UHGV virus genome: UHGV-0286708
Strand: one strand, 5' to 3'
DNA length: 12,166 nucleotides
Origin: a virus
How positions within the stretch are numbered: the stretch's first letter is position 1; each line of letters starts with the position of its first letter. Below the pieces are notes generated by a model, which was not told the DNA's origin, ran no database searches, and saw only the letters and a program-made list of their open reading frames with translations. This document shows positions 1 through 12,166 of the stretch, piece after piece. The translations under genes were made by a program, and so were the position numbers.

Positions 1-371
1 GCGCAGACGATGACGTCACTGCCCGGCTGTATGCGCGAGGTTACCGACTGCGGCCTGAGTTTTTTAAATGGCGGAAAATCGTGTTGAGGCCAACGCCCAT
101 AATGCGGGCGGTTGCCCGGCATCCAACGCCATTCATGGCCATATCAATGATTTTCTGGTGCGTACCGGGTTGAGAAGCGGTGTAACTGAACTGCAGTTGC
201 CATGTTTTACGGCAGTGAGAGCAGAGATAGCGCTGATGTCCGGCAGTGCTTTTGCCGTTACGCACCACCCCGTCAGTAGCTGAACAGGAGGGACAACTGA
301 TAGAAATAGAAGCCACTGGAGAACCTCAAAAACACCATCATACACTAAATCAGTAAGTTGGTATCATCACC
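1..371 (-). mobile_element. IS1 insertion sequence, partial (cut by window start); left inverted repeat ends near 371
   Basis: Reverse complement of 357-371 reads GGTGATGATACCAAC, close to the IS1 terminal inverted repeat GGTGATGCTGCCAAC. The insA ORF lies just inside it, and insB would lie beyond the window start. Confidence 0.9.
41..316 (-). CDS. insA: IS1 InsA (transposition regulator, zinc-finger/HTH protein), 91 aa
   Basis: Translation [43 protein letters not shown]... is the recognisable IS1 InsA sequence with its CxxC...CxxC motif. Confidence 0.9.
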
Positions 372-445
372 TCAAAGCCATTAGGTTCGATTTGAATATA
401 AACAATTTTCATTAAACTGATATTTATCACCAAATTCCGAGCCAA

Positions 446-493
446 AAGATTACATCATATTTAAATGTAATCTTAAATAACTCAGTGTATAAT
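446..493 (+). promoter_or_regulatory. Candidate promoter/operator upstream of the 210-aa ORF: 10-bp inverted repeat followed by a TATAAT -10 hexamer
   Basis: aagattacat (446-455) and atgtaatctt (465-474) are perfect reverse complements with a 9-nt spacer. A perfect TATAAT sits at 488-493, about 70 bp upstream of the GTG start at 565. The -35 is weak. Confidence 0.3.
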
Positions 494-564
494 TCAATTG
501 CACAATAAGAATTAACAGTGTATTTTTAGCCAGGAAATATGATTTCTAAAACGGAGATTTAAAA

Positions 565-1197
565 GTGAAAATATATTACGCATTAAAAAGAATAGCGTAT
601 ATTGCAGGTGCTTTATCTATTGGTTGCGGCTCACTACCAATGATTTTCAGCAAAACACCCGCTCTTCAATACTGGGTGCTCGGGGCTTTTTTAATTTTCA
701 TTGGGTATTGCGTATCAAAGCTTGAGTTCGATAAGTCTAAATACATCAAGTACCTAAATGAAAAGAACGATGGGATTTATATTTATTATGCAAAATTTGG
801 TGGCGAAGAGCACGAAATAAAAATCAACACAAAAAACAAAACAATCGAACTAAAGTCAGGGAAAAATTCCGCCACACTAAACTTTGATAACATCAAATCA
901 TGGAGATATAACGTATCTGGCATTAGCAAGGTTAATGTCATTGGTTCCACTAACAGCGTAATGGGTAATTTCACAGCTTTATCTCAAGCCAGTGCAATCA
1001 ACAACCAAGCAGGGTACAGCGCGTGGGATAATAATGGATTCTTTATTCACACAGATGCATTGGCAAATCCTGTCTGGCATATAAAGATAATACCAAAAGA
1101 TGTCGCAATAAACCTTAAGTCTGACAAGTTTTGGAAAAGTGTCGCTGGCGAATGCGAAGTCTGGATGAACGTAATGAACCGAGCCATTAATAAATAG
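565..1197 (+). CDS. Hypothetical membrane-anchored protein, 210 aa (two N-terminal hydrophobic helices, then a soluble domain); AT-rich cargo
   Basis: Intact ORF with GTG start and GGAG 8 nt upstream. Hydrophobic stretches [19 protein letters not shown] and [15 protein letters not shown]. Codon usage is AT-rich, unlike the neighbouring IS1 and phage genes. I recognise no family. Confidence 0.55.
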
Positions 1198-1441
1198 AAG
1201 TCTTACTGTTGAGGCCAGCGCCCGTGATACGGGCACTGGCACAGCACCCAATACCATTCACGGGCATATCAATGATTTTCTGGTGCGCACCGGGCTGAGA
1301 GGCGGTGTAAGTGAACTGTAGTTGCCATGTTTTACGGCAATGAGAGCAGAGATAGCGCTGATGTCCGGCAGTGCTTTTGCCATTACGCACCACCCCGTCA
1401 GTAGCTGAACAGGAGGGACAGCTGATATAAACAGAAGCCAC
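1187..1441 (-). pseudogene. insA: Truncated insA of a divergent IS1 copy (C-terminus replaced by unrelated sequence)
   Basis: Translation [51 protein letters not shown]... is InsA-like, but it ends in ...GLNSKTSIY where homology to the first copy stops (about 1207). Confidence 0.75.
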
Positions 1442-1497
1442 TGGAGCACCTCAAAAACACCATCATACACTAAATCAGTAAGTTGGCAGCATCACCA
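1207..1497 (-). mobile_element. IS1 remnant (about 290 bp: left inverted repeat plus partial insA), same orientation as the first copy
   Basis: Reverse complement of 1483-1497 is GGTGATGCTGCCAAC, the IS1 terminal inverted repeat. Homology to the first copy runs from about 1207 to 1497 with many substitutions, so it is a different IS1 isoform, truncated. Confidence 0.8.
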
Positions 1498-1541
1498 CGG
1501 CTGCGTTACCTCAATTTTTACACGCCTTAGGTGATTGATTT

Positions 1542-2294
1542 ATGGATTATTTTAGTATTGACTTTTTTATCGGTGAGCTCAAAGTAAATTTTAGTCATAA
1601 GGTTGGTAGGCTTTCGACCGCACTACGGGCAGCTAATTGGCAAATCGATATTAGATATTTGAATGGTAATGACCCCGATATTGGTAAAGAAGTGGATAGT
1701 CTTGAGAAAAACGCATTTAAACGAGTGGAGTTTGAGAGGAAGCAGTATCGGATGCTTTGTGATGATGAAGATCCAATTCAGGAAAGGGTCAATAAGATGA
1801 TCTATTTGTCGGCAATAAACTGGTATTTAGGATTATGTATCGTAGCGTCAGATTGGCGTGATGGTGTGAAGATGTTACTTAAATCTACCGAGCTTCTTGA
1901 TATGTGTCATGGCATTATTGAACATGAAATATGGCAACAGATAGAAACAGAAAAAAAAGGACGTGCTATTAATGGGGGTACAGCAAAAGCTGCTATTTAT
2001 GCTCCTCTAAAAGCTGAAATTATTCGTTTGTTGTATTGCAAGAGACCTATAGATGGTTGGAAAAGCAAGAAGGAGGCTTTGAGGGCTATTGATGAAGATA
2101 TATACAAATTTATTCAAAAACATGGCTATCCCGTTTCTCCTGACGCCAAAAAAGAGGGGGAGGCAGAACTTTATTCACGAATCCCCCGCCTGATTGAAGA
2201 TTGGTCAAGAGATGATGCAATAATTAAGGTTGTTTTTGGCTCAACAGTTAAGCACAAAAATAGCGCCCCTAAGGACGCAGAACAGAATAGATAG
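1542..2294 (+). CDS. Hypothetical protein, 250 aa, AT-rich cargo ORF convergent with the adjacent integrase
   Basis: Intact 250-aa ORF with no obvious transmembrane segment. It sits immediately 3' of the P4-type integrase gene, a classic cargo position in integrative islands. I recognise no family. Confidence 0.55.
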   Translation: MDYFSIDFFIGELKVNFSHKVGRLSTALRAANWQIDIRYLNGNDPDIGKEVDSLEKNAFKRVEFERKQYRMLCDDEDPIQERVNKMIYLSAINWYLGLCIVASDWRDGVKMLLKSTELLDMCHGIIEHEIWQQIETEKKGRAINGGTAKAAIYAPLKAEIIRLLYCKRPIDGWKSKKEALRAIDEDIYKFIQKHGYPVSPDAKKEGEAELYSRIPRLIEDWSRDDAIIKVVFGSTVKHKNSAPKDAEQNR

Positions 2295-2304
2295 ATTGTA
2301 TTTA

Positions 2305-2330
2305 ATGCATGATCCTATTGCATATTTTTT
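2305..2330 (+). terminator. Weak candidate intrinsic terminator between the convergent 250-aa ORF and integrase
   Basis: Short stem ATGCA(2305-2309)/TGCAT(2319-2323) followed by ATTTTTT (2324-2330). The stem is only 5 bp. Confidence 0.25.
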
Positions 2331-2335
2331 GACGG

Positions 2336-3577
2336 TTAACCGACAAGGAGTAGTCCATGACTACCATTGTCTATTATGTTACCGTCATGTGCTGCTTTTA
2401 TAAAATCAGCCCACCATTGCATCATAGGGCGGCGTTGCTCAAGATAATCACTGCGGTTATATGCGCGACGTACTTCATTCTTGTCCACATGAGCCAATGC
2501 AGCCTCAATGACATCAGGCGGAAACCCTTGCTCATTGAGTGCCGTACTAGCGATAGAACGTAAACCGTGTGATACGAGTACGCCTCCTAAACCTGCACGC
2601 TTGAGTGCTGCATTCACTGTTTGGCTGTTCATTGGTTGGGTTGGTTTGATGCGACTGGGAAAGATAAATTCTCGGCCACCACTGAGTGACTTCATCATTT
2701 CCAGAATAGAGAGAGCCTCATCGGATAGTGGAATCGTATGGTCCCGGTTCATCTTCATTCGAGCTGCAGGAATTTTCCATTCGTTAGCATCAAAATCGAT
2801 CTCATCCCATCGAGCTTCAGCAGCTTCGGCAGGGCGGGTAATGGTGAGGAGTTGCCACATGAACAGGCACCTTGTGGACAAGCTGATACTTGCCGTACGC
2901 ATAGTCTGCATTAGCTGTGGAAGTTGATCCGGGCGGATGCTTGGCATGTTTTTCTTTTGCGGTTTCTCGAATGCTTTCCCGATGTTTACGCTGGGAACCG
3001 CATCAATCAAGCCCGTGTTCTGCGCATAAATCATGACTTCGTTAATACGCTGACAAAGACGGCGAACAGTCTCTAATGCACCTCTGGCCTGAACCGGCTG
3101 AACGGCTTTAACCAGAGTATGAGCCTTAATCTCAGTGACACTGATATCACCGATTGTTGGGAAAACATCTCTCTCAAGTGAGCGCCATATATCGTCGGCA
3201 TAGTCCTCTGTTACGCTGGCTTTCTTCACATTCCACCAACGCTCAGCAACTAACAGGAAAGTGTTGGTTTTAGCCTCTTGAGAATTTCTCACCAGTTCTT
3301 TCTGATGTTCCTGAGGATCAATGTCTTTCGCCAATAAAACTTTAGATTCGGCTCTGAGTTTACGTGCATCAGAAAGCGAGACGGCAGGGTAGGCCCCAAA
3401 GCTCTGTTTGGTTCGCTGCTTGGTCAGAGGCCGATAGTAACGGAATTGCCAGAGCTTACTGCCGCTGGACTTGATTAACAGAGTAAGCCCGTCACCATCA
3501 TACAGCTGGTAATCGGCATCTTTAGGTTTGGCGGCTTTGATTTCCGTATCGGTTAACGGCTTGGTTTTTCTTGCCAT
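2336..3577 (-). CDS. intA: P4/CP4-57-type tyrosine integrase (IntA/SlpA-like), about 413 aa
   Basis: Probable start is MARKTKPLTDTEIKAAKPKDADYQLYDGDGL... at 3577, with GGAG upstream; the listed ORF extends 11 codons further 5'. It has the integrase arm-binding N-terminus and C-terminal catalytic motifs (RPAEAAEARWDEIDF, HGLRSIAST, Y in RRAYNRSDY). It lies about 205 bp downstream of a tmRNA 3'-end copy in the same orientation, as in the E. coli ssrA-intA arrangement. Confidence 0.9.
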   Translation of the reverse strand: MARKTKPLTDTEIKAAKPKDADYQLYDGDGLTLLIKSSGSKLWQFRYYRPLTKQRTKQSFGAYPAVSLSDARKLRAESKVLLAKDIDPQEHQKELVRNSQEAKTNTFLLVAERWWNVKKASVTEDYADDIWRSLERDVFPTIGDISVTEIKAHTLVKAVQPVQARGALETVRRLCQRINEVMIYAQNTGLIDAVPSVNIGKAFEKPQKKNMPSIRPDQLPQLMQTMRTASISLSTRCLFMWQLLTITRPAEAAEARWDEIDFDANEWKIPAARMKMNRDHTIPLSDEALSILEMMKSLSGGREFIFPSRIKPTQPMNSQTVNAALKRAGLGGVLVSHGLRSIASTALNEQGFPPDVIEAALAHVDKNEVRRAYNRSDYLEQRRPMMQWWADFIKAAHDGNIIDNGSHGLLLVG

Positions 3578-3597
3578 GGGGAGTCTCCATGCGTTTA

Positions 3598-3633
3598 GGC
3601 CCAACGAAAACAATAGAACTTTTCGTTGGGCCT
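3598..3633. promoter_or_regulatory. Perfect 13-bp inverted repeat (hairpin) about 20 nt upstream of the integrase start
   Basis: GGCCCAACGAAAA (3598-3610) and TTTTCGTTGGGCC (3621-3633) are exact reverse complements with a 10-nt loop. Confidence 0.4.
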
Positions 3634-3704
3634 ATCAATGGGCCTAAAAGGTTCGGATTTAATTAGTTCTCTTCAGACTTCGCGGGACAAATTGAGGGCA
3701 CAAA

Positions 3705-3737
3705 AAAGCCCGCAGGGCTTGTGCCATGCGGGCTTTT
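3705..3737 (-). terminator. Intrinsic (bidirectional-type) terminator hairpin downstream of the tmRNA 3'-end copy
   Basis: AAAAGCCCGCA ... TGCGGGCTTTT forms a GC-rich 11-bp stem flanked by an A-run and a T-run. Position fits the native terminator of ssrA. Confidence 0.6.
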
Positions 3738-3780
3738 AGGACTTCATCGGATGACTCTGGTAATCACCGATGGAGAATTT

Positions 3781-3825
3781 TGGTGGAGCTGGCGGGAGTT
3801 GAACCCGCGTCCGAAATTCCTACAT
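3781..3825 (-). other. ssrA: About 45-nt copy of the tmRNA (ssrA) 3' end: attachment-site repeat separating the two integrated elements; not an intact RNA gene
   Basis: Reverse complement reads ATGTAGGAATTTCGGACGCGGGTTCAACTCCCGCCAGCTCCACCA, the acceptor/T-arm end of enterobacterial tmRNA including CCA. Sequence beyond 3825 is AT-rich and unrelated to tmRNA, so only the 3' segment is present. Confidence 0.75.
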
Positions 3826-3938
3826 ACTATTTTTACTGTAATAAAAACAGTGAATTACGTTTAAAAACAGTCCTTTAGTGTTATTTGCTGTTTATACGTT
3901 TTATGCATTTTTAATGCTCTGCCGCCACTTTGTCGCCA

Positions 3939-4997
3939 TTAAATGCGCTGGTCATTTGATATAGGTAAAATGCTTGTAAAGAGTTTTTCGTCATATAGTG
4001 CGTACTCAGGTATGTAATCACCATTGCTTTTATCTGTTTGGAAGATAGAGGGGTCCTTGTCGATTAAAACATATAACTCAATGAGAATATTTCTTAGTCC
4101 CCAAAGCATTTGCTTTAGTTGTTTTTCATCATTGAATGAGATGCTTATGGCTTCCGTATCTGGTTTTGGATGTTCAGGAATTATTGAGAAAAGATGTTCT
4201 TGGTATTTATAATCAATTCCAAGTAGTCTGCAAAGTTGAATTATGTTTGATTCTATGAGTTGTAGGCTAACTAATTGGTTGTCATGATTTTTGTTGTTGG
4301 ACTTAAGCGATTTGTTTATGTTGTTATAATGATTTGTTGTTTTTCGAATAAAATCTTCTTCGACAGCGGTGCTATAGCCATTATCAATGGAAGATGATTT
4401 GAAAATATTTTTATAAAGAGTGTACGGATGAACTACAGATAGTTCAATACTGTCTATATCACTAGTTTCTTTATTTAATCTTGATAATTTAAATGTTGGT
4501 AGTGTTTGGAATATATCAGCGAAGCTTTTCAGATGTGAGTAATATGAATCAGTGGTGTTTTTTTCAATAACAAGATTGATTTGCTTTTGTGTTTTTTCTA
4601 TTTGGTTCTCTGTTTGTGTGGTTCTATGTATATTGTTGACGATTGCTGCAAGAGGTACCGAAGAAGCTAAAATAAATAATGGCAATTTAGAGATGTCAAG
4701 AAAGTGATTAAAACCGTCTGATGTGAAATTTAAATCGTGGCCTTTCCAAGCCCAGAGGCCATACAAAACAAACATTTTTAACGGTACGATAATAGATGCT
4801 ATGAATAATGGTTGTTTTAATAGATTTTTCTCATTTAGTTTAAGCCAATTGAAGCAATAGAACATAAGTATCAATCCAAGTATATAAGCTACACTAAAGA
4901 AGATAAAAACTCTTGGACGATTAGTGTATATCAATGCTAAGGCAATTAAGATAGTAATGATTGCGTAGGTAATGATTAATGTGAGCTTTTTTTTCAT
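3939..4997 (-). CDS. Hypothetical membrane protein (about 352 aa from MKKKL start; 366 aa if the upstream ATG at 5039 is used), N-terminal 3-4 transmembrane helices plus C-terminal soluble domain; AT-rich cargo at the prophage edge
   Basis: Intact ORF. Hydrophobic helices LTLIITYAIITILIALALIY, VFIFFSVAYILGLILMFYCF, PLFIASIIVPLKMFVLYGLWAW and LPLFILASSVPLAAIV. The start at 4997 lies 4 nt after the int stop codon, on the same strand as cI and int. Strongly AT-rich. I recognise no family. Confidence 0.6.
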   Translation of the reverse strand: MKKKLTLIITYAIITILIALALIYTNRPRVFIFFSVAYILGLILMFYCFNWLKLNEKNLLKQPLFIASIIVPLKMFVLYGLWAWKGHDLNFTSDGFNHFLDISKLPLFILASSVPLAAIVNNIHRTTQTENQIEKTQKQINLVIEKNTTDSYYSHLKSFADIFQTLPTFKLSRLNKETSDIDSIELSVVHPYTLYKNIFKSSSIDNGYSTAVEEDFIRKTTNHYNNINKSLKSNNKNHDNQLVSLQLIESNIIQLCRLLGIDYKYQEHLFSIIPEHPKPDTEAISISFNDEKQLKQMLWGLRNILIELYVLIDKDPSIFQTDKSNGDYIPEYALYDEKLFTSILPISNDQRI

Positions 4998-5001
4998 TCT
5001 A

Positions 5002-6018
5002 TTAAACCAAATTATGTAAAGGATTTTTTGTAACAGCATCTTCTAGATGGTCTGGAGAAAAGTGTGCGTAAACCATCGTCATTTTTATATCGGCATGGCC
5101 CAATATTTCTTTAAGGACAAGAATATTCCCGCCATTCATCATAAAATGACTGGCGAATGTATGACGCAGCACGTGGGTGCATTGGCCCTCTGGTAACTCG
5201 ATGCCTGCTCGCTTTACTGCTCGTTCAAAGGCTTTTCTGCACGGTGTGAATAGTTTCCCTCTGTTCTTGGGGAGTTCATCATACAGATTTTGAGATATCG
5301 GCACGGTACGATTTTTCTTACCTTTTGTCTTGGTATAGGTGATCCGGTATTTTGATAACTGATGGCCCTGCAAGTTTTCTGCTTCACTCCATCGCGCACC
5401 AGTAGCTAGGCATATTTTTGCAATCATTAGTAGGCTGGTGTTTTGAGATTCGGCGCAGGCATTAAGCAGGCGTTTGATTTCGTCCGTGGAAAGAAAAGCC
5501 AATTCACCTTCAGCAATTTTGAAGGTTGGAAGCCCTGCCAGCGGGTTTGGTGCGGACCAGTGCCCTAGTTTTTTCAATGTACCGAACACCGATGACAGGT
5601 TACGCTGCTCAAGATTAACTGTGCGAGGTTTAACGGGTGACATGAACGAGCCGTCTTCATTTTGGACCTCCCCCTTTAATCTGGCTTCCCGATATTTTGT
5701 GAAATCACCTGCTGTCAGCTCAGAGGCGATGGGATCGCCTAGACCATTACAGATAATTCTAAGTTTCGCCATCAGGCGTTTGGGGTCTGCGAGTGTTTGA
5801 CCATATAGGGAATACCACTGCTCAATCACTTCTGATAATCGCCGCCGATCTTCCTTCTCACCAAGCCATGGCTTTTTGTTTACTTCGTCCATGGTGAAGC
5901 TTTCAAATGCAATGGCTTCGCCTTTGGTAGCAAATTGCTTACGCACGCGCTTACCATTGCGTCCATTGGGATAGCACTCACACAACCATTTTCCGTTCGG
6001 CTGTTTTCTGATGGTCAT
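5002..6018 (-). CDS. int: P2/186-family phage integrase (tyrosine recombinase), 338 aa
   Basis: N-terminus ...PNGKWLCECYPNGRNGKRVRKQF... and C-terminal motifs (LATGARWSEA, HVLRHTFASHFMMNGGNILVLKEILGH, MVYAHF) are typical of P2-type Int. Its start is 3 nt after the cI stop. Confidence 0.9.
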   Translation of the reverse strand: MTIRKQPNGKWLCECYPNGRNGKRVRKQFATKGEAIAFESFTMDEVNKKPWLGEKEDRRRLSEVIEQWYSLYGQTLADPKRLMAKLRIICNGLGDPIASELTAGDFTKYREARLKGEVQNEDGSFMSPVKPRTVNLEQRNLSSVFGTLKKLGHWSAPNPLAGLPTFKIAEGELAFLSTDEIKRLLNACAESQNTSLLMIAKICLATGARWSEAENLQGHQLSKYRITYTKTKGKKNRTVPISQNLYDELPKNRGKLFTPCRKAFERAVKRAGIELPEGQCTHVLRHTFASHFMMNGGNILVLKEILGHADIKMTMVYAHFSPDHLEDAVTKNPLHNLV

Positions 6019-6021
6019 AAG

Positions 6022-6660
6022 TTAGAGGTTCTTGATTACTTTGACTGCACGTCCTACGACTTCCACATCATCTACAGAACATTCAAATGAAGTGTCATCT
6101 TGGTTAACTACTATTTTGTTTCCGGGTATGCGCGCAATTTTGACGATGCTTTTAACTCCGTCCATATCGACTAACCAGAAGCCATTACTGACTTGTTTAA
6201 CGGACGTATCCACTACAAAGCTATTATTAGCTGTTTTAACAAATAAAGCGTTGGATGAGTCACCATCGAGCAGGCTGCTATCAAGAAGAATTTCATCACT
6301 TGCCTGCAGTTCGCCGTTCTTCAGTTCAACACGTTTGATGCTAGGAGCAACGATCTTAGAAAGTGGTCTTACAGTGACGGGAGGTTCATTTTTGAGATTT
6401 GTTTCTTCGTTCTCACACGCATACATATCTCCTTGACCAGTAGCCAGCCATAGAAGGGAAACTCCTGTTTCAAGGGCACATTGAATTACCCATTCGGCAG
6501 GAAAGCTATCCCTTAAGTATCTGTTAGCCATAGTGCTTTTGGATACCTCCAGATGTTCGCAGAGCTGCTGTCGTGAACTGAAGTTGTAAGCCTTAATAAG
6601 CCTGTTAATTGCATCGCGCCCACCACTATCATTTCCCGCCTTGATCAAACTCATAATCAA
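6022..6660 (-). CDS. cI: Phage CI-type immunity repressor (186-like), about 210 aa
   Basis: N-terminal HTH region ...LCEHLEVSKSTMANRYLRDSFPAEWVIQCALETGVSLLWLATGQG is typical of CI-type repressors, with a C-terminal oligomerisation-type domain. It is divergent from the apl/cII operon and tightly coupled to int. Confidence 0.8.
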   Translation of the reverse strand: MIMSLIKAGNDSGGRDAINRLIKAYNFSSRQQLCEHLEVSKSTMANRYLRDSFPAEWVIQCALETGVSLLWLATGQGDMYACENEETNLKNEPPVTVRPLSKIVAPSIKRVELKNGELQASDEILLDSSLLDGDSSNALFVKTANNSFVVDTSVKQVSNGFWLVDMDGVKSIVKIARIPGNKIVVNQDDTSFECSVDDVEVVGRAVKVIKNL

Positions 6661-6665
6661 ACCCC

Positions 6666-6694
6666 TTGACGTATATAAAAAGTGATCCTAATAT
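6666..6694 (+). promoter_or_regulatory. Near-consensus sigma-70 promoter directing the rightward early (lytic) operon (pR/Pe equivalent)
   Basis: -35 TTGACG (6666-6671), 17-nt spacer, -10 TAATAT (6689-6694). It starts 6 bp from the cI start codon and is about 75 bp upstream of the apl-like ORF. Confidence 0.55.
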
Positions 6695-6770
6695 CCATTT
6701 ATGGTTTGAAAAGCAAAACCAAACCACATAAAACAAGATAAAACGAAACCAAACTAAGAGATACTGCACT

Positions 6771-7013
6771 ATGAGTACTGATATTTCAATTCGTGTACCA
6801 AAAGAGATGGCTACGCCTGCAGAGTTCGCGGAATGGGAAGGTATCTCCCGCGGCTCCGTGTATCAAAAAATTCACCATGGTCAGCTTGCTAAATACATGG
6901 TCAAGAAAGAAAAAAACAAAGGCCGCGTAAGCCTGCGTTATTTAATGTACAAAACCGATCAGGTCCGTGAATCCCTCGGTCATTCCAACTTCCGCGTCAT
7001 TGTTGGTAAGTAA
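6771..7013 (+). CDS. Apl/Cox-like small DNA-binding protein (excisionase/transcriptional regulator), 80 aa
   Basis: First gene of the rightward operon, opposite cI. Small basic protein with an HTH-like segment (FAEWEGISRGSVYQKIHHGQL). The call is positional, by analogy with 186 apl and P2 cox. Confidence 0.55.
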   Translation: MSTDISIRVPKEMATPAEFAEWEGISRGSVYQKIHHGQLAKYMVKKEKNKGRVSLRYLMYKTDQVRESLGHSNFRVIVGK

Positions 7014-7045
7014 GTTCAATTATGAGAACTTTCTAAGGGGGTAGC

Positions 7046-7555
7046 ATGTTTGATTATAAGATTTCCAAACACCCGCATTTTGATGAAGCCTGTAGAGCTT
7101 TTGCACTTCGTCACAATATGGCGAAGCTGGCAGAACGTGCAGGAATGAATGTCCAGACTCTGCGAAACAAACTCAACCCAGATCAACCGCATCAGCTCAA
7201 TGCGCCAGAAATCTGGCTGCTTACCGATCTGACTGAAGATTCAACGCTGATAGATGGTTTTCTGGCACAGATTCACTGCCTGCCATGTGTACCGATTAAT
7301 GAGGTAGCAAAAGAGAAACTGCCGCATTACGTCATGAGTGCAACCGCAGAGATCGGGCGTGTTGCTGCAGGTGCGGTATCTGGCAATGTAAAAACCAGTG
7401 CAGGTCGTCGTGATGCTATCAGCAGCATTAACTCTGTAACACGACTGATGGCGCTGGCTGCTGTTTCATTGCAGGCCCGTTTACAGGCTAACCCGGCGAT
7501 GGCGAGTGCAGTTGATACCATGACTGGCCTTGGTGCTTCATTCGGTTTGCTGTGA
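7046..7555 (+). CDS. cII: Phage CII-like regulatory protein (186 CII family), 169 aa
   Basis: Same length class as coliphage 186 CII. HTH segment HNMAKLAERAGMNVQTLRNKLNP, position immediately after apl, and GGGG-containing RBS upstream. Confidence 0.75.
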   Translation: MFDYKISKHPHFDEACRAFALRHNMAKLAERAGMNVQTLRNKLNPDQPHQLNAPEIWLLTDLTEDSTLIDGFLAQIHCLPCVPINEVAKEKLPHYVMSATAEIGRVAAGAVSGNVKTSAGRRDAISSINSVTRLMALAAVSLQARLQANPAMASAVDTMTGLGASFGLL

Positions 7556-7562
7556 GGTGCTT

Positions 7563-7763
7563 ATGCTTACGAAAGAACCATCATTTGCATCGCTGCTGGT
7601 TAAACAAAGCCCGGCAATGCACTACGGTCACGGCTGGATCATGGGTGAGGATGGTAAACGCTGGCATCCGTGCCGTTCACAAGATGAATTGCTGGCAGAA
7701 CTATCTACGAAAAAACGGGGGAACAAATGGCTATTGAAGGCGCTGCGGCGACTGTTCCATTAA
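7563..7763 (+). CDS. Small hypothetical early protein, about 66 aa (position of 186 fil-type gene)
   Basis: Likely start MLTKEPSFASLL... with GAGG upstream. Its 3' end overlaps the next gene start by 37 nt. No family recognised. Confidence 0.4.
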   Translation: MLTKEPSFASLLVKQSPAMHYGHGWIMGEDGKRWHPCRSQDELLAELSTKKRGNKWLLKALRRLFH

Positions 7764-8068
7764 GCCCCGGTCAACGCCTGAATGGACTTAATCACATTGC
7801 GGAGTTAAGGGCGAAAGTTTTTGGTCTGAATATTGAGTCAGAGCTTGAGCGGTTTATTAAAGATATGCGTGATCCACGCGATATTAATAGCGAACAAAAT
7901 AAACGGGCACTGGCTGCCATATTCTTTATGGCAAAAATTCCAGCTGAACGTCACAGCATCAGCATTAATGAGCTGACCACTGACGAAAAGCGGGAGTTGA
8001 TTAAAGCAATGAATCATTTTCGTGCAGTAGTGAGCTTATTCCCCAGACGACTAACCATGCCGAATTAA
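7727..8068 (+). CDS. Hypothetical phage early protein, 113 aa
   Basis: Intact ORF with GGGGGA RBS about 7 nt upstream. Lies in the P2/186 early-operon region between cII and the TraR-like gene. Confidence 0.5.
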   Translation: MAIEGAAATVPLSPGQRLNGLNHIAELRAKVFGLNIESELERFIKDMRDPRDINSEQNKRALAAIFFMAKIPAERHSISINELTTDEKRELIKAMNHFRAVVSLFPRRLTMPN

Positions 8069-8135
8069 CAAACTAATGAACTTCATGGCGTAAACACGCC
8101 GGGTATCCCTTTACCTAAATTCAGGAGAATTGATT

Positions 8136-8369
8136 ATGCGTAATATTGAAACCCTCACGACTAAAACCGGACCGGATGATGCAGGGCTTAATATTTTACT
8201 GACAGAGGCTCGTCTGGAAGAACGCCGGGCAAGAGCTGAAGCAATGGCAGCTCGCCTTGATAGCCTTGCGTGCCATATCACATCCCGCCAGCTAAACCAC
8301 GTTGAAGCGGCTGAACTGCTGCGTGTGGCAGCTGAAGCAATCCAGAACGAAGCGCAGGAGATCCACTAA
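8136..8369 (+). CDS. Hypothetical small phage protein, about 77 aa (helical, Ala/Glu/Arg-rich)
   Basis: ATG at 8136 with AGGAG 8 nt upstream; the listed ORF begins at an in-frame TTG at 8130. Its stop overlaps the next start (TAATG). Confidence 0.5.
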   Translation: MRNIETLTTKTGPDDAGLNILLTEARLEERRARAEAMAARLDSLACHITSRQLNHVEAAELLRVAAEAIQNEAQEIH

Positions 8370-8596
8370 TGGCTGATGCAATGGATCTCGTACAGCAGCG
8401 CGTTGAAGAAGAACGCCAGCGTCATATCCGTACTGCCCGTGCCAAAACGCCGGGCGTGTCCCGCGTGCTTTGCATTGAGTGTGAAGCGCCAATTCCGCCA
8501 GCACGCCGCCGTGCCATTCCGGGTGTGCAGCTTTGCATTACCTGTCAGGAAATCGCAGAGCTGAAAGGCAAACATTACAACGGAGGTGCTGTATGA
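8369..8596 (+). CDS. TraR/DksA-family C4 zinc-finger protein, 75 aa
   Basis: CIECEAPIP...CITCQ gives the four-cysteine CxxC-N17-CxxC arrangement typical of phage TraR-like proteins. AGGAG RBS upstream. Confidence 0.75.
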   Translation: MADAMDLVQQRVEEERQRHIRTARAKTPGVSRVLCIECEAPIPPARRRAIPGVQLCITCQEIAELKGKHYNGGAV

Positions 8597-9450
8597 GCAC
8601 CATCCTGAAATGGGCGGGAAATAAAACCGCCATTATGTCCGAACTGAAAAAGCATCTTCCTGCTGGCCCGCGACTGGTTGAACCTTTCGCGGGTTCCTGT
8701 GCAGTGATGATGGAGACGGAGTACCCCAGCTATCTTGTTGCGGATATTAATCCTGATTTAATCAACCTCTATAAAAAGGTTGCTGCTGATTGTGAATCAT
8801 TTATATCTCGCGCCAGAGTTTTATTTGAGATCGCAAACAGGGAGGTAGCTTATTACAACATAAGGCAGGAGTTTAATTACTCAACTGAAATTACTGATTT
8901 CATGAAAGCGGTATATTTCCTGTATCTCAATCGTCACGGTTACCGTGGTTTATGTCGCTATAACAAGAGCGGGCATTTCAACATTCCCTACGGTAATTAT
9001 AAAAATCCGTATTTCCCTGAAAAAGAAATTCGCGCATTTGCAGAAAAAGCCCAGCGAGCAACGTTTATCTGCGCCAGCTTTGATGAAACGCTGGCGATGT
9101 TGAAGGCGGGGGATGTGGTGTATTGCGATCCGCCGTATGACGGTACGTTTTCCGGCTATCACACTGATGGTTTCACTGAAGATGACCAGTATCACCTGGC
9201 ATCCGTTCTTGAACATCGGTCATCAGAAGGACATCCGGTCATTGTTTCTAACAGTGACACATCCCTGATCCGTTCGCTGTATCGCAATTTTACTCACCAC
9301 TATATCAAGGTAAAACGCAGCATCGGTGTGGCAGCTGGCGAGGGTAAATCAGCAACAGAAATCATTGCTGTTTCCGGGCCGCGCTGCTGGTTGGGATTTG
9401 ATTATTCGCGTGGCGTGGATAGTTCTGCCGTGTACGGAGTGCGTGCATGA
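8593..9450 (+). CDS. dam: Dam-type N6-adenine DNA methyltransferase, about 285 aa, phage-encoded orphan methylase
   Basis: From [11 protein letters not shown] it parallels E. coli Dam: [39 protein letters not shown] and the catalytic DPPY ([10 protein letters not shown]). ATGA overlap with the TraR-like stop. Confidence 0.9.
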
Positions 9451-11861
9451 GCCATGCTGATATGAACAACTGCAGCGGCTTTAACGAGGCCGCCGCAGCA
9501 TTCTCATGGAACAGCCCGAAAAAGGCTATTAACCCTTATCTGGACCCGGCGGAAGTTGCGCCGGTTTCTGCGCTTTCAAACCTGATCACTCTGTACGCTG
9601 CCGATAACGAGCAGGAACAACTGCGCCGCGAGGCACTGAGTGATCAGGTCTGGGAGCGTTATTTCTTTAATGAATCCCTTGATCCTGTCCAACGCGAAAT
9701 GGAGCAGGATAAGCTCATTAGCCGGGCAAAGCTGGCGCATGAGCAGCAGCGTTTTAATCCGGACATGGTCATACTGGCGGACGTTAAAGCCCAGCCCTCC
9801 CATATCAGCAAGCCGCTGATGCAACGTATTGAATACTTCAGCAGCCTGGGCAGGCCAAAGGCTTATTCCCGCTATTTGCGTGAAACGATTAAGCCATGTC
9901 TGGAACGACTGGAGCATGTACGCGACAGTCAGCTATCCACTTCTTTTCGCTTTATGGCAAGCCATGAAGGGCTGGACGGCCTGCTGATCCTGCCTGAAAT
10001 GAGTCAGGATCAGGTGAAACGCCTGTCTACTCTTGTCGCTGCGCATATGAGCATGTGTCTTGATGCCGCTTGTGGTGATTTGTACGCCACCGATGATGTT
10101 AAGCCAGAAGAAATCCGCAAGACATGGGAAAAGGTGGCAGCAGAAACCCTGCGACTGGATGTCATACCGCCTGCGTTTGAGCAACTCCGCCGGAAAAGAA
10201 ACCGCCGTAAACCCGTACCCTATGAACTCATTCCGGGTTCGCTGGCGCGTATGTTGTGCGCCGACTGGTGGTATCGGAAATTATGGAAGATGCGTTGCGA
10301 ATGGCGGGAAGAGCAGTTGCGTGCTGTTTGCCTGGTCAGCAAAAAAGCATCTCCCTATGTCAGCTATGAAGCCGTGATGCATAAACGTGAGCAGCGCCGT
10401 AAGTCGCTGGAGTTTTTCCGTTCTCATGAACTAGTGAACGAAGACGGCGACACGCTGGATATGGAGGACGTGGTAAACGCCAGTAGTAGCAACCCGGCGC
10501 ATCGCCGCAATGAGATGATGGCATGTGTTAAAGGTCTGGAGCTTATCGCGGAAATGCGCGGTGACTGCGCCGTTTTCTACACCATCACCTGTCCGTCACG
10601 TTTCCATTCCACGCTAAATAACGGCAGGCCCAACCCAACCTGGACAAATGCGACGGTAAGACAAAGCAGTGATTATCTGGTCGGCATGTTTGCTGCATTT
10701 CGTAAGGCGATGTACAAAGCCGGATTGCGCTGGTATGGCGTGCGGGTGGCTGAGCCGCATCATGACGGTACAGTTCACTGGCACCTGTTGTGTTTTATGC
10801 GCAAAAAAGATCGCCGCGCCATTACTGCTTTGTTGCGTAAGTTTGCCATTCGTGAAGACCGCGAGGAGCTGGGTAATAACACAGGACCACGCTTTAAGTC
10901 TGAGCTGATAAACCCGCGCAAAGGTACGCCAACAAGCTACATCGCGAAATACATCAGTAAGAACATTGACGGGCGTGGTCTGGCTGGCGAGATCAGCAAG
11001 GAAACGGGTAAATCCCTGCGTGATAACGCTGAATACGTTAATGCCTGGGCGTCTCTTCATCGTGTTCAGCAATTCCGCTTCTTTGGCATTCCGGGGCGTC
11101 AGGCTTACCGTGAACTGCGATTGCTGGCTGGTCAGGCGGCAAGGCAACAGGGGGACAAAAAAGCAGGTGCGGCGGTACTGGATAACCCACGCCTTGATGC
11201 CATCCTGGCTGCTGCTGATGCTGGTTGTTTTGCCACCTACATCATGAAGCAGGGCGGCGTACTGGTTCCCCGCAAATATCACCTCATCAGAACCGCTTAT
11301 GAAATCAACGAAGAGCCGACCGCCTATGGCGATCACGGCATTCGTATTTATGGCATCTGGTCACCCATTGCAGAGGGCAAGATCTGCACTCATGCAGTGA
11401 AGTGGAAAATGGTTCGTAAGGCCGTTGACGTTCAGGAGGCGGCAGCCGACCAGGGCGCTTGCGCCCCTTGGACTCGTGGCAATAACTGTCCCCTTGCCGA
11501 AAATTTGAACCAACAGGAGAAAGATAAATCAGCTGATGGGGACACCAGAACGGATATTACCCGCATGGATGACAAGGCGTTGCACGATTACCTGCACAGT
11601 ATGAGCAAAAAAGAGTGCCGGGAACTGGCAGCAAGGTTACGCCTGGTGAAACCGAAACGGCGTAAAGACTACAAACAGCGAATTACAGACCATCAGCGAC
11701 TGCAGCTCGTGTATGAGCTGAAGTCCAGAGGATTTGATGGCAGCGAGAAAGAGGTCGATTTACTCCTTCGCGGAGGCAGTATTCCGTCAGGAGCAGGCCT
11801 GCGTATCTTCTATCGGAACCAGCGTTTGCAGGAAGATGATAAGTGGCGGAACCTGTATTAA
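9447..11861 (+). CDS. A: Replication initiation protein gpA (P2/186 gene A, rolling-circle HUH endonuclease), 804 aa
   Basis: Large ORF in the gene-A position, coupled to dam by an ATGA overlap. It has an HUH-like motif ([10 protein letters not shown]) and paired tyrosines ([10 protein letters not shown]), as expected for the gpA nickase. Confidence 0.85.
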
Positions 11862-11954
11862 TTACGCTGGTTAACAATTCGTGCTCTTAATAATACCAGG
11901 CATATCAGGCTGATAAGCGTAAAAAAAACGTTTTACATCAGTAAGATTATTATA

Positions 11955-11974
11955 TACTGTAAATATAAACAGTG
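11955..11974. promoter_or_regulatory. LexA-box-like palindrome (SOS operator) upstream of the next ORF
   Basis: TACTGTAAATATAAACAGTG has the form CTGT-N8-ACAG with an AT-rich spacer, matching the LexA consensus TACTGT(AT)4ACAGTA at about 17 of 20 positions. A TTTACA hexamer (11932-11937) lies 17 nt upstream. Confidence 0.5.
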
Positions 11975-12015
11975 GTTATACATACAGTATTGCGTGTGGT
12001 GTCATAGGAGGAAAG

Positions 12016-12166
12016 ATGCAGGACTATTTTTTGGAGTCTTTGAAGCTCCAGCGCATTGATTTTTTTCTTAAGCTTGTAGCGGCTAGTGAGTGTAGTGATG
12101 AAGAGAAGGGGCTGGCTCTGCAGTGGGTTTCTGAATTGACTGATGAACTCATGGCAAAAATCAGAA
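12016..12166 (+). CDS. 5' part of an ORF running off the window (at least 50 aa); hypothetical, possibly SOS-regulated (position analogous to 186 tum and the P2-family cargo region after gene A)
   Basis: ATG at 12016 with GGAGG 4-9 nt upstream; open to the window end (MQDYFLESLKLQRIDFFLKLVAASECSDEEKGLALQWVSELTDELMAKIR...). Absent from the ORF track only because no stop is reached. Confidence 0.45.
   Translation, partial: MQDYFLESLKLQRIDFFLKLVAASECSDEEKGLALQWVSELTDELMAKIR

Follow-up and report, generated by a model that had tools for sequence, protein, structure and literature searches.

A displaced ssrA 3′ end as the probable junction between a Fels-2-like prophage and an IntA-type island

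The tmRNA gene, ssrA, is a multi-element integration hotspot (#9 in E. coli) that takes up prophages, P4-like satellites and other elements (PMC10121019). SopEPhi and Fels-2 both integrate there (PMC3448106), and the ssrA locus of S. Typhimurium LT2 carries Fels-2, with a P2-type integrase, and Stm27X, with a P4-type integrase (Table 1 of PMC10107115). Tandem arrays are routine at tDNAs, a tDNA fragment separating two elements that each possess their own integrase (PMC4383910), and the tandem layout at ssrA is textbook biology. In K-12, excision of CP4-57 turns ssrA into the inactive deltaT357, and ribosome rescue switches to ArfA (PMC10107115).

Here we describe a window of 12,166 nucleotides from the virus genome UHGV-0286708 (Table 1), in which the last 45 nt of ssrA stand between two such elements. 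We conclude, with a probability of about 0.93, that this fragment is a displaced ssrA 3′ end left behind when a Fels-2-like, 186-type phage integrated beside a CP4-57-type island. The fragment is at once the int-side junction of the prophage and the ssrA-side junction of the island.

Table 1. Features of the window, with coordinates in the window's own numbering.
Feature	Position	Strand	Basis or remarks
IS1	1-371
Plasmid-derived segment, 835 bp	372-1206		between IS1 and IS1 fragment
IS1 fragment	1207-1496
Island ORF, 250 aa	1542..2294	+	phrog_19089; function unknown
P4-type tyrosine integrase, IntA orthologue, 413 aa	2336..3577	-	Pfam Arm-DNA-bind_3, Phage_int_M, Phage_integrase
Rho-independent terminator	3702..3740	-	inverted repeat 3704-3718 / 3723-3737 and U-run
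ssrA 3′ fragment, displaced	3781..3825	-	last 45 nt of tmRNA, CCA-terminated
A/T-rich int-side attP arm spacer, phased A/T tracts	3826..3919	+	contains TAAAAACAGT at 3842-3851 and 3862-3871
Two direct 186-type Int arm-type sites (predicted), 11 bp apart	3920..3941	+	TGCCGCCACTT and TGTCGCCATTA
Low-GC cargo gene, 352-aa predicted membrane protein	3939..4997	-	phrog_17460; function unknown
Prophage integrase, Fels-2/186 type, 338 aa	5002..6018	-	Pfam Int_N, Phage_integrase
186-type early region	6022..11861	.	Pfam and PHROG matches
cI	6022-6660	-
apl	6771-7013
cII	7046-7555
Replication gene A	9447-11861

The ssrA fragment and its two flanks

Read on the minus strand, the fragment is identical at 45 of 45 positions to nucleotides 319-363 of K-12 ssrA, including the CCA end. 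The identity ends sharply at 3825/3826, and the tmRNA body is absent beyond. ARAGORN finds no tmRNA gene and no tRNA gene in the window, and the Rfam tmRNA match stays below threshold (38.6 bits, where the gathering score is 47), its good part being the 3′ end. This ssrA-like 45-mer is not a gene. An Rfam match to ‘IsrM’ at 3702-3790 was rejected as spurious, consisting only of the terminator hairpin (35 bits; gathering score, 376), and the remaining Rfam matches in the window have E-values of at least 0.25. A search for a second copy of the ssrA end within the window returned a sole other match, 8284-8299 with two mismatches, a chance resemblance that sits within a phage gene.

To the left of the fragment lies an integrase 93% identical to K-12 IntA, whose start is separated from the CCA end by 203 nt, the same spacing as in K-12. 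These 203 nt, comprising the terminator and the intA leader, are colinear together with the integrase with the K-12 junction of ssrA and CP4-57. The stretch with this strong terminator hairpin is near-identical to the K-12 sequence downstream of ssrA, it is the terminator that follows ssrA in strains where an IntA island abuts the gene, and a 136-nt fold of the region yields z = -4.7. Because the K-12 annotation starts CP4-57 15 nt inside ssrA, the terminator and the leader belong to the island.

From 1497 to 3825 the window is approximately 100% identical to TW01221, in which the same intA directly follows an intact ssrA; TW01221 is the empty-site comparator for the phage. In other genomes alpA, a DEAD-box helicase and QatABCD come after the 250-aa ORF. 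Here IS1, its fragment and the plasmid segment cut the island at 1497, where the relatives carry alpA, and no AlpA domain is found in the window. The gene content of CP4-57 was not encountered either, the cargo of the relatives being Qat and the helicase rather than CP4-57 genes. The island is thus an IntA-type island or remnant and not CP4-57 itself; cut by IS1 and without alpA in the window, it may no longer be a second active element but a remnant.

All sequence to the right of 3825 belongs to a Fels-2-like (186-type) prophage of the P2 family. Its Int is 93% identical to that of Fels-2, and its early region, which also holds fil, DUF5347, DUF2732, a traR-like gene and dam, is 98.4% identical to a prophage of E. 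coli KE58 and 85-95% identical to Fels-2-like phages. The 186-type switch and gene A are recognized by Pfam (Phage_CI_repr/CI_C, Phage_CP76, Phage_GPA) and PHROG (a Cox-like excisionase). LR14 and KE58 carry P2-type structural and late genes, which would fall beyond 12166 here. Between 3800 and 5200 the GC content drops to 0.29-0.35, compared with approximately 0.47-0.50 in the flanks, and this stretch contains the cargo gene. The encoded protein has no match in Pfam or PADLOC, its homologues are hypothetical enterobacterial proteins in 52 of 52 cases, and its AF2 model (pLDDT 80) finds no fold match in the PDB. Other genes fill the interval from the arm sites to int in Cartapus, RE2010 and LR14, and in Fels-2, SEN8 and MLG42 nothing does; we flag this slot as a variable cargo position.

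The comparisons above bear out most of what the original prediction had proposed for this locus: that only the tmRNA end is copied on the minus strand, that AT-rich phage cargo lies on its right, and that a hairpin and a P4-type integrase follow in the same orientation some 205 bp away. Alignment to the K-12 region downstream of ssrA confirms the terminator, the leader and the spacing. The description of this layout as that of native ssrA requires a correction; it is colinear with the K-12 junction, but its terminator and leader are the island's own.

Origin of the junction and order of arrival

Together with positions 3779-3780, the fragment forms a 47-bp identity block common to the attP of Fels-2-type phages. 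The free phages Cartapus, SEN8, RE2010, MLG42 and SopEPhi carry core and int-side arm (3779-3941) uninterrupted, as a single block. The core is exact in Cartapus, SEN8 and MLG42, and in Fels-2, where the block is annotated as attP, the record gives 24+23 nt (47 nt) for the core. With TW01221 as the empty site, this contiguous attP agrees with the earlier proposal that the repeat is an att junction between a 186-like prophage and a CP4-57-type island. The fragment equals the 3′ end of the target and a tyrosine integrase (5002-6018) lies in the interval, as the Islander approach expects of a displaced tDNA fragment, and a Fels-2-clade Int occurs together with an attP core that is the ssrA 3′ end. 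The intact tDNA in the same orientation that the approach expects at the opposite end of the element is seen in LR14 and KE58. Of what a tandem array would show, the window contains both integrases and the phage's ssrA fragment; the distal fragment belonging to the island would lie further left, past the window's edge, and IS1 interrupts the island at 1497.

In place of a site-specific recombination junction, the fragment could be read as what decay has left of an ssrA that was duplicated or deleted, or as a chimera made by assembly at a repeat, given that only one prophage end lies in the window and that the nearby IS1 copies show the region to be rearranged. However, the break matches the attP core in free Fels-2-like phages to the nucleotide, and the same junction recurs in complete E. 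coli genomes and in other genera, which makes this explanation extremely improbable. A junction of this type, with both of its sides, is found in at least 11 complete E. coli genomes, and no complete E. coli genome covers at least 80% of the window. In several other genera, Fels-2-type junctions abut P4-type integrases or remnants of them; a scan of genome contigs for the junction returned 7 species, S. Typhimurium LT2 not being among them.

The whole prophage was read from end to end in two relatives. LR14, the more distant (92.5% identity to the window where the two match), shows the order smpB, intact ssrA, prophage, 45-nt fragment and integrase island. In KE58, the closest phage relative (98.4%), the fragment and an intact ssrA are 35.2 kb apart, a distance computed in KE58 only, and have a block of 46 bp in common. 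Because the intact ssrA and the second core fall outside the window, the two-ended structure rests on LR14 and KE58.

Integration of a Fels-2-like, 186-type temperate phage of the P2 family into the 3′ end of ssrA would account for this arrangement as follows. The attP of the phage brings along the final 45 nt of ssrA and a terminator, so that an Int crossover in the shared core would restore ssrA to function at the prophage's far end (ogr/D), approximately 35 kb to the right and beyond the window. The original 3′ end would be pushed to the int end of the prophage. Already adjoining a CP4-57-type island with its terminator, 203-nt leader and P4-type IntA, this displaced end would thereby come to serve as the junction of both elements. 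Int, IHF and Apl would presumably act on the junction as they do in 186, and either element may still be able to excise.

The order of arrival can be approached through the same phage in other settings. With 99.7-100% DNA identity and an exactly matching cargo protein, it is found upstream of three downstream contexts, namely the ypjA side, an island with a 409-aa P4-type integrase, and the 413-aa IntA island of this window; L017, in turn, carries the same island and the same 45-nt fragment with a Fels-2-like phage that lacks the cargo. Because one phage lies upstream of three different contexts, arrival of the phage after the island is favoured, though not proven by the locus. In the reverse order, the phage would have entered a bare ssrA and the IntA island would later have used the displaced 45-nt fragment as a secondary attB. 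The fragment does hold the whole 3′ end targeted by P4-type integrases, both elements are also found alone, and since the annotation of CP4-57 begins 15 nt within ssrA, an island inserted into the fragment would look identical. Still, the three contexts are explained most simply if the phage was a recent arrival each time, and the island has been in place long enough for IS1 to interrupt it and for a piece of plasmid to be acquired; we therefore consider phage-first arrival unlikely.

A prophage next to an integrase island at ssrA makes for an ordinary locus, since the layout is common and well documented at this hotspot. Its importance is largely confined to annotation: where the island ends on the right and where the prophage ends on its int side are now fixed to the base, and the tmRNA gene gains one more example of its role as a shared landing pad with elements stacked in tandem. 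The geometry prompts a further, unlikely idea, that the Fels-2-like prophage would insulate tmRNA from the IntA/AlpA excision switch. Because the prophage separates the island from functional ssrA, excision of the IntA island would rewrite only the dead 45-nt fragment; if so, the phage, on excising later, could return a damaged fragment to ssrA, according to where the crossover takes place. An observation that bears on this idea is that the island in this strain looks disabled by IS1.

The int-side arm of attP

The original prediction had nominated two direct copies of AAAAACAGT beside the core as candidate Int arm-type sites. Two copies are indeed present, the first at 3843-3851 as given and the second at 3863-3871 instead of 3864-3872. 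Their assignment as arm sites was not upheld, because the 186-type consensus matches a far better conserved pair at 3920-3941, where we predict from sequence that the Int arm-type sites lie. The published consensus tgccGCCActt (PMC3448106) matches both members of this pair, the YAYCGCCAYTY of the 186 record matches them as well, and the pair aligns with the annotated 186 sites TACCGCCACTTTATCGCCATTC. The motif TGYCGCCA has only two matches in the window, both within 3920-3941, and a conservation footprint of 15 distinct arms identifies these positions as the best conserved block. The free phages Cartapus, SEN8 and MLG42, and LR14 as well, have two further copies of the site on the other arm, completing the 186-type pattern of arm repeats flanking the core.

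The window contains exactly two copies of AAAAACAGT (0.24 expected), both of them in the arm, and the AAAAACA of the first copy is conserved across the 15 arms, as might be anticipated of Int binding sites. The second copy is conserved only partly, and LR14, with an identical Apl and a related Int, has GATTTTCAGT in its place; the other arm showed no repeat resembling AAAAACAGT, and 186 has an IHF footprint and Apl operators at the corresponding position. A 10-nt repeat, the length of TAAAAACAGT, arises in approximately 6% of Markov-1 simulations of the 113-nt A/T-rich arm, and the one seen here is only marginally beyond chance. Set beside the pair at 3920-3941, these points leave a role of AAAAACAGT as an arm-type site quite improbable.

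The spacer at 3826..3919 takes the position that an IHF footprint and Apl operators occupy in the 186 attP. A scan with the IHF consensus (WATCARNNNNTTR, one mismatch allowed) picks up both AAAAACAGT copies, which is not evidence, because the window as a whole is barely enriched in such matches (37 found, 27 expected). A TAAAAC-like motif is common to the arm and the pR-pL region, with AAAC recurring at an exact 10-bp period over 6721-6754. To read these motifs as Apl operators is speculation, since the copies in the arm are spaced by 20 bp and of mixed orientation.

Comparison with described elements

The prophage stands close to Fels-2 and SopEPhi of Salmonella (Felsduovirus), with which it shares an Int at 93% identity, the ssrA 3′-end core, a homologous arm carrying the same pair of sites, and the 186-type early genes. 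In contrast to Fels-2, its host background is E. coli-like, its membrane-protein cargo between the arm sites and int has no counterpart there, and DNA identity reaches only approximately 85%. The closest phage genomes in the collection are relatives from Klebsiella, Salmonella and Escherichia, for example RE2010 and Cartapus.

Coliphage 186 presents the same attP order of core, A/T-rich architectural segment, two arm sites 11 bp apart, an optional small cargo ORF and int, with nearly identical arm sites, CCGCCACTTT(A/G)TCGCCATT. It differs in its target and core, which derive from tRNA-Ile (ileY) instead of ssrA, and its TTGCCA-like Apl operators are absent here, where Apl is of the Fels-2 type.

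CP4-57 of K-12, an IntA/AlpA element at ssrA, resembles the island in its IntA and in the spacer with its terminator. The neighbour of intA is yfjH in K-12 and the 250-aa ORF here, and alpA, helicase and QatABCD replace the CP4-57 cargo in the relatives of the island. Unlike CP4-57, the island described here is cut by IS1, lacks alpA in the window and no longer abuts a functional ssrA. From the tandem arrays known at tDNAs the locus does not differ in kind; what is specific to it is the pairing of these two elements and the damage that IS1 has done to the island.

The ssrA fragment as a phage attachment junction

Read on the minus strand from 3825 to 3781, the window carries ATGTAGGAATTTCGGACGCGGGTTCAACTCCCGCCAGCTCCACCA, which matches positions 319-363 of the 363-nt E. 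coli K-12 tmRNA gene, ssrA, at 45 of 45 nucleotides and ends in CCA. ARAGORN finds no tmRNA gene in the window, and the Rfam tmRNA model reaches 38.6 bits versus a gathering score of 47, aligning well at the 3' end only, with the 278-nt body absent. These results bear out the original observation of an ssrA 3'-end copy that runs through CCA and lacks the tmRNA body. Identity to ssrA ends exactly at 3825/3826, where the window reads CTACAT/A and a strain with an intact gene reads CTACAT/C; once two flanking bases common to the window's downstream sequence are included, the block of identity measures 47 bp (3779-3825). To the right of the fragment, GC content falls to 0.29-0.35.

The fragment and the adjoining int-side arm (together 3781-3941) lie side by side without a break in the genomes of the free phages Cartapus, SEN8, RE2010, SopEPhi, and MLG42, with the core exact in Cartapus, SEN8, and MLG42, and the Fels-2 record annotates the corresponding block as attP (24+23 = 47 nt). 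The fragment is thus a phage att junction at ssrA, as had been proposed. The far end of the prophage lies outside the window, and a second core is present there in both relatives checked, E. coli LR14 and KE58. In KE58, whose phage is the closest relative, 35.2 kb separate the fragment from an intact ssrA, and an identical 46-bp block stands at both ends. In LR14, smpB and an intact ssrA are followed by a BRCT-domain gene, ogr, D, and the genes for tail, head, and lysis; A, dam, cII, apl, cI, int, and a cargo gene then lead to the 45-nt fragment, beyond which lie an integrase and, after it, IS1, alpA, and yfjI. Beside the intact ssrA, the phage provides its own terminator hairpin and two further arm-type repeats; together with the far-end ssrA of the relatives, this phage-borne DNA indicates that the mechanism is the standard one. 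In such an integration, attP would bring a replacement ssrA 3' end, crossover within the shared core would rebuild ssrA, and the old 3' end would be displaced to the int side.

Features of the window around the ssrA fragment
Feature	Coordinates	Strand	Remarks
IS1	1-371		left end of window
Plasmid-type segment	372-1206		835 bp; ORF 565-1197 with DUF4755
IS1 fragment	1207-1496		truncated end, 91% identical; cuts island at 1497
P4-type integrase	start at 3577	-	413 aa; domains Arm-DNA-bind_3, Phage_int_M, Phage_integrase
Terminator hairpin, strong	arms 3704-3718 and 3723-3737	-	U-run; within the 203-nt stretch downstream of the fragment
Candidate Int arm-type site 1	3920-3930		TGCCGCCACTT; 186-type
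Candidate Int arm-type site 2	3931-3941		TGTCGCCATTA; 186-type
Cargo ORF	3939-4997	-	
int	5002-6018	-	93% identical to Fels-2 Int
Early genes			cI, apl, cII, fil, DUF5347, DUF2732, traR-like gene, dam, replication gene A

The integrase island and its IS1-damaged side

On the minus strand, the 203 nt downstream of the fragment are near-identical to K-12 sequence downstream of ssrA, and the integrase that follows is 93% identical to K-12 IntA. The hairpin and the P4-type integrase do share an orientation, as originally noted, but they do not mark native ssrA flank: because the K-12 annotation starts CP4-57 15 nt inside ssrA, the terminator and leader at this junction are island DNA. An Rfam match to 'IsrM sRNA' at 3702-3790 (minus strand) is false, scoring 35 bits versus a gathering score of 376 and covering the terminator hairpin only.

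Window positions 1497-3825 are ~100% identical to E. coli TW01221, in which the same intA and the same 250-aa ORF come immediately after an intact ssrA; TW01221 is the comparator for a site empty of the phage. By exact-protein look-up, the same island lies next to intact ssrA in many assemblies, where it normally carries alpA, a 1095-aa DEAD-box helicase, and the QatABCD defence system (loci L010-L018, fetched with the 250-aa protein). In some of these assemblies, ssrA shares just 95.6-97.5% identity with the E. coli gene, and the 250-aa protein beside it is 100% identical, which suggests recent between-species transfer of the IntA island.

The plasmid-type segment between the IS1 sequences has no match among 5,426 complete E. 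coli genomes, but non-mobilizable plasmids of 5-7 kb from Enterobacter, Klebsiella, and Serratia match it at 99.9-100% identity. The arrangement looks like IS1-mediated capture of a small-plasmid fragment, which took the place of the island's alpA side. Given the IS1 cut at 1497 and the lack of any AlpA domain within the window, the earlier label 'CP4-57-like' needs correction: this is an IS1-damaged IntA-type island, not CP4-57 itself.

The prophage arm and its cargo gene

To the right of the fragment, the window carries the early arm of a P2-family prophage that is Fels-2-like and 186-type. Positions 3780-12166 are 98.4% identical to the KE58 prophage, and identity to Kp4865-2, RE2010, Cartapus, and Fels-2 is 85-95%.

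Two copies of AAAAACAGT had been proposed as Int arm-type sites. Both copies exist, at 3843-3851 and 3863-3871 (the second had been placed one base off), but they are probably not sites of this kind. The 186 GenBank record gives the arm-type sites as YAYCGCCAYTY, three left and two right; going from the core towards int, it places the IHF footprint, five Apl operators, two arm sites, and orf69. The candidates TGCCGCCACTT and TGTCGCCATTA fit this consensus, and TGYCGCCA has no other match in the 12 kb; the pair aligns with TACCGCCACTTTATCGCCATTC of 186, forms the most conserved block among 15 distinct arms, and has a counterpart pair on the opposite arm. Counted from the core, the AAAAACAGT copies lie at +18 and +38, a stretch that in 186 is occupied by IHF and Apl sites. 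Across the 15 arms, AAAAACA of copy 1 is conserved and copy 2 only in part, the latter being replaced in LR14 despite an identical Apl there. A 10-nt repeat turns up in ~6% of simulated arms, and each copy equals the IHF consensus with one mismatch, a class of match that is barely enriched. With low to moderate confidence, the copies can be read as part of a bent, A/T-phased architectural segment for putative IHF and/or Apl binding.

Between the divergent cI and apl genes (6711-6760), AAAC is repeated at intervals of exactly 10 bp (6721, 6731, 6741, 6751; e.g., ATAAAACA and ATAAAACG), a pattern kept in LR14, KE58, and comparison locus L017. Such periodicity would be expected of Apl operators, and the motif resembles TAAAAAC of the att arm.

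The low-GC cargo gene (about 0.30-0.34) extends to 5039 when read from its first ATG, overlapping the int stop. Its 352-aa product combines roughly four membrane-type helices at the N terminus with a soluble C-terminal domain; neither Pfam nor PADLOC gives a hit, and the PHROG match is phrog_17460, annotated 'function unknown'; all homologues (52/52) are 'hypothetical' and enterobacterial, and the AF2 model (pLDDT 80) has no fold match in the PDB. The gene may be a phage-defence or exclusion moron. Its slot, flanked by the Int arm sites and int, is variable. Fels-2, SEN8, and MLG42 have no gene there, 186 has orf69, Cartapus encodes a RES-domain protein, LR14 carries a 222-aa ORF, and prophages of Erwinia and Citrobacter have homologues of the window's cargo gene. 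The related BEN5202 prophage has a GapS1 family gene annotated somewhere in the matched stretch.

Order of arrival and comparison with known ssrA arrays

Geometry by itself cannot order the two insertions, since the displaced fragment could itself have been the island's entry point. The DNA downstream of this phage, which keeps the exact cargo protein, is of three different kinds: the ypjA side (KE58, L029, L031), an island that has a 409-aa P4-type integrase along with resolvase and ParB genes (L030, at 11173-11217), and the window's own IntA island. The L030 phage is 100% identical in DNA over window 3826-7376, and the L029 phage 99.7% over 8.3 kb. One near-identical phage before three contexts therefore favours a pre-existing island and a later phage, the order originally suggested.

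The tandem reading of phage and integrase island, which was the main interpretation, holds on the att evidence, the TW01221 comparator, and the relatives LR14 and KE58. At least 11 complete E. coli genomes span this junction type on both sides (P4-type integrase leader, fragment, Fels-2-type arm), and the 47-mer occurs at 5,969 places in 5,426 genomes, with a maximum of four per genome. Locus L017 joins the very same island and 45-nt fragment to a cargo-less Fels-2-like phage, and L019 has a 32-nt ssrA fragment (12240-12271) between the island and an element with an Arm-DNA-bind_2 integrase. When one genome was scanned per species, Enterobacter, Citrobacter, Klebsiella, Erwinia, Photorhabdus, and others proved to have Fels-2-type junctions, several of which adjoin P4-type integrases or their remnants.

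The observation and its main interpretation are correct, and the biology is already well described. ssrA is the integration site of SopEPhi and Fels-2 (PMC3448106), the E. coli tmRNA locus is a multi-element hotspot (PMC10121019), and Islander resolves tandem arrays explicitly, with 125 listed (PMC4383910). The LT2 ssrA holds both Fels-2 and Stm27X, a P4-integrase island (PMC10107115, Table 1).
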